A stretch of DNA of 7,819 nucleotides from a virus (taxonomy: Duplodnaviria; Heunggongvirae; Uroviricota; Caudoviricetes). Location of the stretch: IMG/VR virus record IMGVR_UViG_2547132252_000009. The stretch is one strand, 5' to 3'. This document shows, one piece after another, positions 3,546 through 5,520 of the stretch (its first letter is position 1; every line of letters starts with the position of its first letter). The position numbers and the translations under genes were made by a program. Under the pieces are notes generated by a model. That model had not been told where the DNA came from. It saw only the letters and a program-made list of their open reading frames with translations, and searched no databases.

Positions 3546-3971
3546 TTAATGCACAGCCAGAGTGTTTCCTGCCGGGCCACCACGATTCATCTGATCGAAC
3601 AGAACGATCGCTGATGCAACGAAATCATCAATATCTTTCACCAGCCGTTCCTTCGTCTCTACCAACTCCCGAAAATAAGCGGAACTGTGGCTGCGCATTC
3701 GGGCCACCAGCGGAGGCGGCATCGCTTTTTCGATCGCTGGTAACAACGCCTGAATTTTTTTAACCGCATCAGGAGTGTCTTTCTCCACCCAGCGGAAAAT
3801 TTTCTGAGTATTGCGAGCCATGGCTTCCGGATGGCTGTCGTCATACAGTTCCGGGAACGTCATTCCCAGCTCGAAATACGCTTTGGTAATTTTCGCAGCC
3901 GGTACTTTTTCGCCGTCCGGATGCGCCCAGGCATTCATCGCCATGCGGATGTGTTCATGCTTGATTTTCAT
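3546..3971 (-). CDS. ydaT: YdaT-like protein (CII-like regulator / putative toxin family)
   Basis: 141 aa starting MKIKHEHIR..., recalled as the Rac YdaT N-terminus; sits directly downstream of the Cro-like gene with a 17-bp overlap; GGAG 9 nt upstream of the ATG. Confidence 0.75.
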   Translation of the reverse strand: MKIKHEHIRMAMNAWAHPDGEKVPAAKITKAYFELGMTFPELYDDSHPEAMARNTQKIFRWVEKDTPDAVKKIQALLPAIEKAMPPPLVARMRSHSSAYFRELVETKERLVKDIDDFVASAIVLFDQMNRGGPAGNTLAVH

Positions 3972-4227
3972 GAATCAACTCCGGCGCATTTGATGTGTTA
4001 ACCTTACATCCAACAGGTAAACCGTCGGTTGGGTTAGGATAAATATCTGGGCGGATTTCATGCGGGGTAACTTCCCACTTCATTAGTTGGCATAACGGAA
4101 TTACCTGCTTTGGGGGAACGCCAAAGCTAAACCATTGCCAAACAGTCTGTTGAGCGACCCCCATATAACGACCTATTTCAGCCTGAGTGTATTTCTGCCT
4201 AATTTTTTCGCGAGTGCTATCTAGCAT
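3955..4227 (-). CDS. ydaS: Cro-like HTH regulator (YdaS-like)
   Basis: 90 aa; HTH motif AEIGRYMGVAQQTVWQW; ATG 4227 preceded by GGAGG (5-nt spacer); divergent from the repressor gene across the operator region. Confidence 0.8.
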   Translation of the reverse strand: MLDSTREKIRQKYTQAEIGRYMGVAQQTVWQWFSFGVPPKQVIPLCQLMKWEVTPHEIRPDIYPNPTDGLPVGCKVNTSNAPELIHENQA

Positions 4228-4260
4228 TTTGCCCTCCTCTAAAAACTATAAGCAAAGCCT

Positions 4261-4299
4261 ACAATAAAAAACTGTATGCAATCAACAGTTTTTTATTGT
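4261..4299. promoter_or_regulatory. Operator: perfect 15-bp inverted repeat ACAATAAAAAACTGT / ACAGTTTTTTATTGT with 9-bp spacer, in the divergent ydaS / repressor intergenic region
   Basis: 4261-4275 is the exact reverse complement of 4285-4299. A further ACAG/CTGT mini-palindrome lies at 4306-4328. Candidate -10 TATAGT for ydaS (minus strand, 4243-4248) and TAAAAT (4324-4329) for the repressor gene. Confidence 0.7.
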
Positions 4300-4335
4300 G
4301 ATGCTTTTAACAGTATTTACCTGTAAAATTGAATA

Positions 4336-4737
4336 ATGATGAGCGCCCTAGAAGTATCTATGTACAGAATCAGCAAGCTTCTTCAGGAAACTGGATGGAG
4401 CCAGGCTGAGCTTGCCCGTAGAATTGGTGTGACACAACAAACTGTTCAACAATGGGTCAGCGGTAAGGCTACACCTAAAGCCTCAAGTTTGGATAAACTG
4501 GTTGAGGTTTCAGGGCATCCATTGCATTGGTTTTTATTGCCTCCTGAAGAGTGTGAGCAAATTTTCACCCCTGACACGATGAAAATTGGTCCTCGCCAAC
4601 GCGAACTGCTCCAAGCTTTTAGTGCGTTTCCTGAGGAAGACCAAGAAAAAATGCTTCAAGAAATCAAAGACAAGAAAAAATCAATGGAAGAAACCATTGC
4701 TAGGTGGCTGGCGGCACAAAAAAGCCGCCGGGCGTGA
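4336..4737 (+). CDS. paaR2: CI-like XRE-family repressor, PaaR2-like
   Basis: 133 aa; HTH SQAELARRIGVTQQTVQQWVSG; first gene of a three-gene operon with a small antitoxin and a ParE toxin; divergent from the Cro-like gene. Confidence 0.8.
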   Translation: MMSALEVSMYRISKLLQETGWSQAELARRIGVTQQTVQQWVSGKATPKASSLDKLVEVSGHPLHWFLLPPEECEQIFTPDTMKIGPRQRELLQAFSAFPEEDQEKMLQEIKDKKKSMEETIARWLAAQKSRRA

Positions 4738-4764
4738 CCACAGTACAAGAAGAGGAGTTATGCC

Positions 4765-4956
4765 ATGGGTACAGCCCTTTCTCCGATAGTTTCAGAATTC
4801 GAAACTACCGAACAAGAAAACAGTTACAACGAATGGTTGCGCACTAAAGTAACGTCAAGCCTTGCAGACACTCGCCCCGCAATTCCACATGACGAGGTAA
4901 TGGCTGAAATGGAAAATCTTATTGCTCAAATTGCTGTAACTAACAAGAGCGAGTAA
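4765..4956 (+). CDS. paaA2: Small acidic antitoxin, PaaA2-like
   Basis: 63 aa, acidic; GAGGAG 6 nt upstream of ATG 4765; its stop overlaps the toxin start (TAATG). Confidence 0.8.
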   Translation: MGTALSPIVSEFETTEQENSYNEWLRTKVTSSLADTRPAIPHDEVMAEMENLIAQIAVTNKSE

Positions 4957-5243
4957 TGTTACCCATTTTATGGCTACCGTCTGCTCGCGATGATTTGCGC
5001 CAGATCATAACTTACATCGCCAAGGAGAACCCACCGGCAGCACGTAGACTAAAAATACGCATTGAAACATCGGTATTACCTCTATCTGAGCATCCGTACT
5101 TATATCCACCAAGCGAACGGGTTTCTGGATTGAGAGAGATCGTGACCCACCCTAACTACATAATCCTGTACAGAGTAGCTGCTTCAAGCATTGAGATTGT
5201 AAGCGTGACACATTCTCGGCGACAATTTCCCTTCTCTATCTGA
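4956..5243 (+). CDS. parE2: ParE/RelE-superfamily toxin, ParE2-like
   Basis: 95 aa; ParE-like N-terminus MLPILWLPSARDDLRQIITYIAKENPPAARRL; translationally coupled to the upstream antitoxin. Confidence 0.85.
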   Translation: MLPILWLPSARDDLRQIITYIAKENPPAARRLKIRIETSVLPLSEHPYLYPPSERVSGLREIVTHPNYIILYRVAASSIEIVSVTHSRRQFPFSI

Positions 5244-5261
5244 GTTGAACAATTTTCATAC

Positions 5262-5284
5262 TCCCTCTTTCGAGGGATTTTTTT
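5262..5284 (+). terminator. Rho-independent terminator after parE2
   Basis: tccctc-tttc-gaggga hairpin (6-bp stem, 4-nt loop) followed by a T7 run at 5278-5284. Confidence 0.6.
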
Positions 5285-5294
5285 GCCCAAAACA

Positions 5295-5334
5295 ACAATT
5301 AAAAACTGTTGACACAAAAACAGTTTTTTATTGT
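5295..5334. promoter_or_regulatory. Second operator copy (ACAATTAAAAACTGT, 10-bp spacer, ACAGTTTTTTATTGT) with a perfect TTGACA -35 in the spacer, upstream of the ydfA operon
   Basis: Right half-site 5320-5334 is identical to 4285-4299; left half 14/15 identical; TTGACA at 5309-5314. A -10 is not clearly identifiable (TAGATT at 5335-5340 is too far). Confidence 0.55.
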
Positions 5335-5520
5335 AGATTACATACACCAACCACCCACCCCGCCCCACAGAACGCCGGGCAATACTTCGAGTTACCAAGC
5401 AGTGGTCAGGGGGTAAGTAGCCAGCCCGAGGCGTATGAACATGACGGCAGGGTTCAACTTTAATAACTATGCAGCAGGTTTTTGTTCCGCTACCCGGCGT
5501 TAAGGGGAAATGAGGTCAAC

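Follow-up and report, generated by a model that had tools for sequence, protein, structure and literature searches.

The closest described counterpart of the locus considered here is the paaR2-paaA2-parE2/ydaS-ydaT region of prophage CP-933P (Sp12), which was dissected by Jurenas et al. (2021) (PMC8630535). Our subject is a 7,819-nucleotide stretch of viral DNA (Caudoviricetes; IMG/VR record IMGVR_UViG_2547132252_000009), the whole of which we call the window, and within it the region where ydaT and ydaS diverge from a repressor gene across a long palindrome. Our reading, to which we assign a probability of roughly 0.8, is that this region is the immunity switch of a cryptic lambdoid prophage of enterohemorrhagic Escherichia coli (EHEC), a heteroimmune paralogue of the PaaR2/YdaS/YdaT switch of CP-933P with predicted operators of 15 bp. 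An earlier interpretation made from the letters alone (hereafter the sequence-only reading) had already proposed a lambdoid switch with a Cro-like YdaS, a CII-like YdaT, and a CI-analogous repressor, and both the paralogy with CP-933P (PMC8630535) and the conservation in relatives bear this out. What our analysis documents is the anatomy of the sequence, its homologies, and their conservation.

In CP-933P, PaaR2 is the analogue of CI and YdaS that of Cro. The paaR2 transcript, mapped by 5' RACE (rapid amplification of cDNA ends), starts at the A of the ATG and is thus leaderless, for which it was likened to cI (PMC8630535). In mobility shift assays and footprints, PaaR2 and YdaS bind the 97-bp intergenic region, which carries 18-bp repeats of the GTTTAGTAA type (PMC8630535). 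Furthermore, stimulation of PRM933P at low PaaR2 levels was deduced from reporter fusions, a PL/OL-like site lies beyond the toxin-antitoxin pair, YdaT activates a PRE-like promoter, and the locus is bistable (PMC8630535). YdaT itself forms a tetramer and recognizes TTGATT-N6-AATCAA where ydaS meets ydaT, a site that was footprinted with DNase in CP-933P (PMC9986795). Finally, the operators of phage 434 are 14 bp long, with 5+5 contacted outer bases and ACAAT-NNNN-ATTGT as the reference sequence (PMC1636474).

The switch of the window lies in a lambdoid early region with the gene order ydaT < ydaS <> repressor > paaA > parE. The earlier calls of ydaT, a cro-like ydaS, and a divergent repressor with a helix-turn-helix (HTH) domain agree with the list of open reading frames (ORFs) and with the Pfam families. 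The paaA-parE pair directly 3' of the repressor gene, on which the sequence-only reading was silent, matches Protein Data Bank (PDB) entry 5cw7.

3546-3971, minus strand: ydaT-like gene (CII analogue), 141 amino acids; Pfam YdaT_toxin (PF06254), 38.9 bits against a cut-off of 21
3955-4227, minus strand: cro-like ydaS, 90 amino acids; Pfam YdaS_toxin (PF15943), 38.8 bits against a cut-off of 30
4336-4737, plus strand: repressor gene (CI analogue), 133 amino acids; Pfam HTH_3 (HTH_3/Cro-C1)
4765-4956, plus strand: paaA, in the same orientation as the repressor gene; Pfam PaaA2, 5.6e-19
4956-5243, plus strand: parE, the toxin partner of paaA; Pfam ParE_toxin, 2.9e-17
5262-5287, plus strand: terminator-like hairpin and T-run closing the repressor operon

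For comparison, we took the CP-933P locus (L002) from the genome of E. coli O157:H7 strain TR01 by way of a paaR2 5' end rebuilt from published primers. The window locus is present in the same genome; because the two co-reside, they are presumably heteroimmune. The proteins at the two ends of the region are close to their CP-933P counterparts, with identities of 86% for YdaT (which also matches PDB entry 8bt1 at E = 1e-82), 70% for PaaA against PaaA2, and 67% for ParE against ParE2. The repressor can be aligned with PaaR2 over its C-terminal part only, where 29 of the last 44 residues are identical; its N-terminal domain gave no alignment with PaaR2. Similarly, YdaS is unrelated to the YdaS of CP-933P (local score of 34, with 24% identity over 37 amino acids). 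Searches of the PDB sequences with the repressor and the Cro-like protein returned no structure of PaaR2 or YdaS. At the DNA level, blastn similarity to CP-933P ends at 3982, just past the YdaT site, and restarts at 4672. Since this leaves a 690-bp segment without DNA similarity, we regard it as a swapped immunity cassette. The YdaT site, which had escaped notice before, is base for base that footprinted in CP-933P.

3961-3978: YdaT site (O_M type), TTGATTTTCATGAATCAA, at the junction of the ydaS stop and the ydaT start; a perfect TTGATT-N6-AATCAA in a PRE-type control region
3983-4671: immunity cassette, comprising most of ydaS, the right operator (OR) sites with their promoters, and the HTH domain and linker of the repressor

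In addition to gene order, the two loci have in common the embedded paaA-parE pair, the O_M site, a start at which the -10 hexamer, 6 nt, and the ATG follow one another, a PL region after the toxin-antitoxin pair, and a repressor without a RecA-cleavage domain, as was noted for PaaR2 too. They differ in the length of the intergenic region, which is 108 bp in the window and 97 bp in CP-933P, and in their operators, which are three 15-bp boxes in the former and four 18-bp GTTTAGTAA-type repeats in the latter. To judge from these comparisons, the window locus is a heteroimmune paralogue of the characterized CP-933P switch and not that switch itself.

Positions 4261-4299 of the window read ACAATAAAAAACTGT-ATGCAATCA-ACAGTTTTTTATTGT, an inverted repeat of 15-9-15 with arms that are 100% complementary. 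It is the longest perfect inverted repeat of the window, and, as the sequence-only reading had it, real: in 60 first-order Markov simulations of the window, with loops of up to 50, the longest perfect inverted repeat was 12 nt and the mean 9. Equally correct was its placement midway between the divergent start codons, given that the center at 4280 lies 53 nt from the ATG of ydaS (4227) and 56 nt from that of the repressor (4336). What finds no support is the view of the 39-bp palindrome as a single operator whose half-sites are unusually long. On its own, each arm forms a 434-type pseudo-dyad (ACAAT-AAAAA-ACTGT, with half-sites ACAAT and ACAGT), a third such box lies nearby, and the corresponding boxes of relatives are not mirror images. 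The third box and two more at a left operator (OL), 3' of parE, had not been noticed before.

4261-4275: OR1 box, ACAATAAAAAACTGT, the left arm of the palindrome
4285-4299: OR2 box, ACAGTTTTTTATTGT, the right arm, directly beside the weak -35 region of the promoter for repressor maintenance (PRM)
4310-4324: OR3 box, ACAGTATTTACCTGT, whose final T opens the PRM -10 hexamer
5295-5309: OL box, ACAATTAAAAACTGT
5320-5334: OL box, ACAGTTTTTTATTGT

The OR boxes start at 4261, 4285, and 4310 and are thus 24 and 25 bp apart, center to center; OR and OL are separated by about 1.02 kb. A scan of the window for the box gave four matches where 0.28 were expected, a number reached in none of 200 shuffles, and every one of the five strict matches lies at OR or OL. 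The looser pattern ACA-N9-TGT occurs six times in the window (1.9 expected) and forms three pairs at a spacing of 23-26 bp, an outcome seen in 0 of 2,000 simulations. A third OL box was sought by eye, yielding one poor candidate (5340-5354) that we do not claim. Around the palindrome, an imperfect extension to 4254-4306 (AAAGC ... GCTTT) makes up a near-symmetric block of about 53 bp that is found in this allele only, and near-identical sequence surrounds the boxes at both OR and OL. Together, the extended symmetry and the likeness of OR to OL suggest that, in the EHEC allele, inverted duplication or gene conversion has recently taken place between copies of the operator.

Six loci were compared, namely, that of the window and those of Salmonella, Klebsiella, Pluralibacter, Morganella, and one further relative (L012), with identities to the window repressor of 80%, 68%, 69%, 68%, and 50%, respectively. 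What is conserved across them is a 434-like pseudo-dyad of 15 bp, ACA(A/G)T-N5-A(C/T)TGT. Relative to the repressor ATG, the three boxes of the relatives lie at about -75, -51, and -26 (in L012, the first is at -74), and in all five relatives the boxes hold their position despite divergence of the DNA around them; OR3 is found at -26 in five of the six loci and is degenerate in Morganella (L010). Two further boxes bracket the downstream promoter in relatives, with a single downstream box in L012. An exact mirror image of OR1 and OR2 is found in the EHEC allele only. Because the relatives keep three boxes at the same offsets without this symmetry, the conserved unit is the 15-bp box, and the 39-bp palindrome is, on this comparative evidence, OR1 plus OR2 of a predicted three-site OR that is matched by a two-site OL.

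The protein that would read these boxes has the 434 repressor as its best PDB sequence match (E = 3e-5, with about 32-35% identity over the HTH domain). Specifically, its TQQTVQQ aligns with TQQSIEQ of 434, so that Q34, Q35, and Q39 correspond to Gln28, Gln29, and Gln33; throughout the repressor family, residues 34 and 35 are always glutamine, and most members have glutamine at position 39 as well. An AlphaFold (AF2) model has a mean predicted local distance difference test score (pLDDT) of 77, with 83-90 in the HTH domain; this domain is built of five helices, residues 76-85 form a disordered linker, and the C-terminal part is a helical hairpin. In a fold search, the 434 repressor domain 2or1_L fitted the model with a root mean square deviation of 1.3 Å and 32% identity; the whole model returned generic Xre-type HTH matches only, and the C-terminal hairpin nothing informative. 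No Peptidase_S24 match was found in Pfam, and the C-terminus is modeled as two helices rather than a LexA/S24-type cleavage domain, for which reason induction cannot proceed by RecA-stimulated autocleavage. The repressor is therefore CI-like in the role that its paralogy with CP-933P implies, but not in structure. Its HTH domain is 54% identical over 28 amino acids to that of YdaS (E = 4e-8), and the recognition helices, TQQTVQQW and AQQTVWQW, have QQTVxQW in common, as expected if both proteins were to compete for the same sites.

Among the relatives, there are signs of co-variation between repressor and operator. In L011 and L008, which have R or K at position 39, the Cro helix carries R as well, and the boxes change to ACAC...GTGT. 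In the 434 co-crystal literature, Gln33 acts at base pair 4, and the ACAC change fits this.

Promoters were placed by comparison across the six loci, as follows.

4324-4338, plus strand: predicted PRM, with -10 TAAAAT at 4324-4329, then 6 nt, then the ATG at 4336 as presumed +1
4256-4285, minus strand: predicted rightward promoter (PR), with -35 TTGATT from 4285 to 4280, an 18-nt spacer filled by OR1, and -10 TAGGCT from 4261 to 4256
5295-5339, plus strand: predicted OL and leftward promoter (PL), in the order box, -35 TTGACA (5309-5314), box, -10 TAGATT (5334-5339)

The PR layout, TTGAyy-17/18-TAnnnT with the -35 in the spacer between OR1 and OR2, is kept in the six loci, and the PL layout, box-TTGACn-box-TAGnnT, was found in five. 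As an alternative -10 for PR we rejected TATAGT (4250 to 4245), which has no -35, is unconserved, and would give a leader of about a dozen nucleotides starting within the Shine-Dalgarno sequence. Directly 3' of the predicted PL -10 lies a C/A-rich, nearly G-free stretch at 5340-5370 (ACATACACCAACCACCCACCCCGCCCCACA). Its core, CCAAC(C)CAC(C)C, stands in the equivalent position in the loci of Salmonella, Klebsiella, Pluralibacter, Morganella, and L012, and the stretch may serve the PL transcript as a leader element, perhaps rut- or nut-like.

The start of the repressor gene had been described as lacking a Shine-Dalgarno sequence, with a TAAAAT hexamer 6 nt upstream of the ATG, and both features can be read directly: the hexamer occupies 4324-4329, and positions -20 to -1 contain no Shine-Dalgarno-like run longer than 3 nt, with in-frame stops at -12 and -6. 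Such sequences are found elsewhere in the region, as AGGAGG before ydaS (4233-4238), AGGAG before paaA, and GGAG before ydaT. The arrangement of a -10 hexamer TA(A/G)(A/G)AT, exactly 6 nt, and an ATG without a Shine-Dalgarno sequence recurs in six of six loci. It also resembles the start of paaR2 that was mapped by 5' RACE, where GATAAT-TACCAC-ATG stands in place of the TAAAAT-TGAATA-ATG of the window. The leaderless geometry that had been proposed is thus borne out indirectly, and a repressor mRNA that starts at the ATG is supported to the same degree. A separate observation concerns the second E. coli repressor type (L008), in which an in-frame ATG (2489-2500; ATGAAGCGAATGACT) lies 9 nt upstream of the called start MTTLE and exactly 6 nt after a TAAAAT hexamer (compare P0066, which begins MNRMTTLE). 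This suggests that the upstream ATG is the true leaderless start of L008 and that the annotated start is wrong.

How would such a switch operate? For binding, promoter use, activation, looping, and bistability, we infer from the CP-933P paralogue and from the biology of lambda and 434. In the repressor, an HTH domain of the 434 type would be coupled to a C-terminal oligomerization domain like that of PaaR2, and the protein would compete with YdaS for the 15-bp pseudo-dyads, three at OR and two at OL. Because OR1 fills the spacer of PR, repressor on OR1 and OR2 would shut this promoter of ydaS and ydaT. Repressor on OR2, centered at -44, would probably assist RNA polymerase on the weak PRM, from which a leaderless mRNA starting at the ATG would be made; lambda CI at OR2 stimulates PRM in the same arrangement. 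Occupancy of OR3 by excess repressor or by YdaS would shut PRM, since OR3 overlaps its -10. Likewise, the OL boxes would shut the strong PL-like promoter that they bracket, and with 1.02 kb between OR and OL, an oligomeric repressor could plausibly loop the intervening DNA. Finally, YdaT on 3961-3978 would activate a promoter of the PRE type directed toward the repressor-paaA-parE operon.

The locus combines features of several known systems. It had been called Rac-type, which is true at the level of families, as YdaS and YdaT belong to the same Pfam families as those of Rac in E. coli K-12 and the divergent repressor/cro-cII layout is alike; homology to RacR does not extend beyond the HTH domain. 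Identities to the Rac proteins are 33% for YdaS and 32% for YdaT, RacR (158 amino acids) matches the window repressor weakly (34% over 53 amino acids, E = 0.002), and the intergenic repeats of Rac (CATTAGGC type) are unrelated to the boxes. With 434, the locus shares the outer half-site (ACAAT/ACAGT), an A/T-rich center, a tripartite OR, and a recognition helix common to repressor and Cro. In contrast to 434, with its 14-bp ACAA-N6-TTGT, all six loci have boxes of 15 bp (5+5+5), OL has two recognizable boxes and not three, the Cro analogue is of the YdaS family, and the repressor ends in a short helical hairpin instead of a LexA-like cleavable domain.

As in lambda, a divergent PR and PRM lie over three predicted operators, a weak PRM -35 stands beside OR2, the repressor mRNA is predicted to be leaderless, OL is distant, and a CII-type activator site is found at the cro/cII junction; the operators of lambda OR also have much the same spacing as those seen here. 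In contrast to lambda, about 1 kb separates OL from OR, a toxin-antitoxin pair takes the position of rexAB, and the window proteins are not homologous in sequence to CI, Cro, or CII. More distant still are the short repressors of the Gifsy-1/Gifsy-2 type (31% over residues 11-111, E = 1e-10), which are also without a protease domain. Gifsy repressors are induced by antirepressors, and the similarity hints that the window repressor may be controlled in this manner.

The window matches a prophage of E. coli O157:H7 and O26 at 99.9-100% identity, and its switch region (3546-5340) shows zero differences from strain TR01. At a coverage of at least 80%, the 1.9-kb core occurs in 485 of 5,426 complete E. 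coli genomes (about 9%), mostly EHEC; 441 complete-genome records carry it at an identity of at least 99%. In TR01, the neighbors of the locus are O/P-type replication genes on one side and DUF1391, ydfB, dicB, and an exonuclease on the other. These neighbors, along with the frameshifted integrase of the TR01 reference prophage (L001), mark the prophage as lambdoid and defective and the locus as its immunity region. An adjoining "ECs1072 family" gene suggests that this prophage is Sp4/CP-933M, going by the Sakai gene numbering. Hallez et al. reportedly named the paralogues paaR1 and paaR2 in 2010, and we deduce the name paaR1-paaA1-parE1 for the window locus from secondary sources.

Some observations concern other parts of the window. 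Relative to TR01, there are 1-base deletions at 533 and 2259. The deletion at 2259, in a T-run, frameshifts the 363-amino-acid O/replication-type gene of L001 into ORFs 1715-2176 and 2164-2916, and that at 533 lies inside a duplicated DUF1627 segment. Within the DUF1627 gene, direct repeats of about 190 bp (261-452 and 485-675) flank a lox-like 34-mer at 447-480, ATAACTTCGTATA-ATGTATGC-TATACGAAGTcAT, which is loxP with one mismatch. The reference prophage has one copy of the segment and no lox site, and the junction is covered by 0 of 5,426 complete E. coli genomes; it has the look of a scar left by Cre-lox engineering, or of some other artificial join in the source sequence. In the region upstream of the dicB-side genes, a 24-nt inverted repeat (6974-6997 and 7117-7140; AAAAGTGAATTTTGTGATGCGGTG and CACCGCATCACAAAATTCATTGTT) is 92% complementary, with arms 119 nt apart.

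Other explanations of the palindrome can be weighed against this background. Its perfect 15/15 complementarity and its position between the start codons would suit a single operator, on which one repressor dimer grasps two unusually long half-sites of 15 bp. We consider this highly improbable. The arms are 434-like pseudo-dyads in their own right, with a third box 25 bp on and two more at OL, and in the five relatives box 1 matches the reverse complement of box 2 at 10-14 of 15 positions, about the same as in direct comparison (9-13 of 15). Furthermore, a 60-residue HTH domain contacts some 5-6 bp per half-site, going by the precedent of 434 (PMC1636474). It is also quite improbable that, besides offering protein sites, the palindrome acts as a cruciform or as an RNA hairpin (an attenuator or processing site) in a PRE-type read-through transcript. 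A PRE transcript toward the repressor would include the palindrome, the RNA of which folds at -20.2 kcal/mol (z = -5.1), and in this allele the symmetry reaches imperfectly to 4254-4306. Yet the stem is nearly pure A/U, unlike the G+C-rich stem of an intrinsic terminator, the transcripts predicted from PR and PRM begin outside the palindrome, and in relatives the pairing is eroded by mismatches without compensatory changes (-9.7 kcal/mol in L005 and -4.9 in L012). Since partial complementarity is built into any pair of pseudo-dyad operators, and since the pairing erodes in relatives and the predicted transcripts start outside, the hairpin potential is best viewed as a by-product of the operators; a hairpin or terminator reading was rejected on conservation.

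An alternative of another kind is that the inherited features of the locus no longer make up a working switch and that addiction to paaA-parE alone keeps this DNA in place. The frameshifted integrase is in line with such decay, as is the result that the phage collection contained no sequenced phage with a repressor more than 60% identical to that of the window. Nevertheless, we regard a decayed relic as unlikely, because all five ORFs are intact, the core is at least 99% identical in the 441 genomes mentioned above, and the operator and promoter geometry is the same as that conserved across genera. In addition, the CP-933P paralogue is equally cryptic, and it is functional and bistable all the same (PMC8630535).

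Our preferred reading, a heteroimmune switch with 15-bp operators, has several points weighing against it. Binding, transcription, and expression at the window locus stand as inference. A generic sigma-70 scan of the intergenic region found no promoter at its thresholds, owing to hexamers and spacers that are off consensus; the -10 hexamers of PR and PL are weak (TAGGCT and TAGATT), their spacers are 18-19 nt, and no recognizable -35 for PRM was seen in any of the six loci. An operator of 15 bp may entail a docking geometry that differs from that on the 14 bp of 434, and the co-variation of position 39 with the boxes comes from two loci that may not be independent. The oligomeric state of the repressor is assumed from that of PaaR2, reported as an octamer. 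Finally, since the host prophage is defective, as its integrase frameshift indicates, the switch may no longer govern a lytic program.

The logic of lambda and 434 and the switch of CP-933P were already known; what is new is an uncharacterized member with a different DNA-binding specificity. One extension, which we think doubtful, is that the window repressor and PaaR2 form mixed oligomers through the C-terminal domain that they share (29/44), coupling the two switches of O157:H7, and that the mirroring of OR1 and OR2 was selected. If so, coupling could come about by trans-bridging of operators or by subunit poisoning, and exact mirror copies at OR (nearly so at OL) would remove any intrinsic hierarchy of affinity, leaving occupancy purely to the cooperativity of the oligomer. 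More generally, our findings indicate that PaaR/YdaS/YdaT switches come in exchangeable immunity cassettes, made up of the HTH domain, cro, and the operators, on a constant scaffold of the oligomerization domain, YdaT and its site, and the addiction module paaA-parE. They yield an operator map that can be tested, for a hitherto unstudied switch found in about 9% of complete E. coli genomes (485/5,426). They also outline a small natural specificity code, in which Q39 goes with ACA(A/G)T and R or K at position 39 with ACAC, that could be used for orthogonal repressor/operator pairs and for predicting cross-immunity among the prophages of EHEC.

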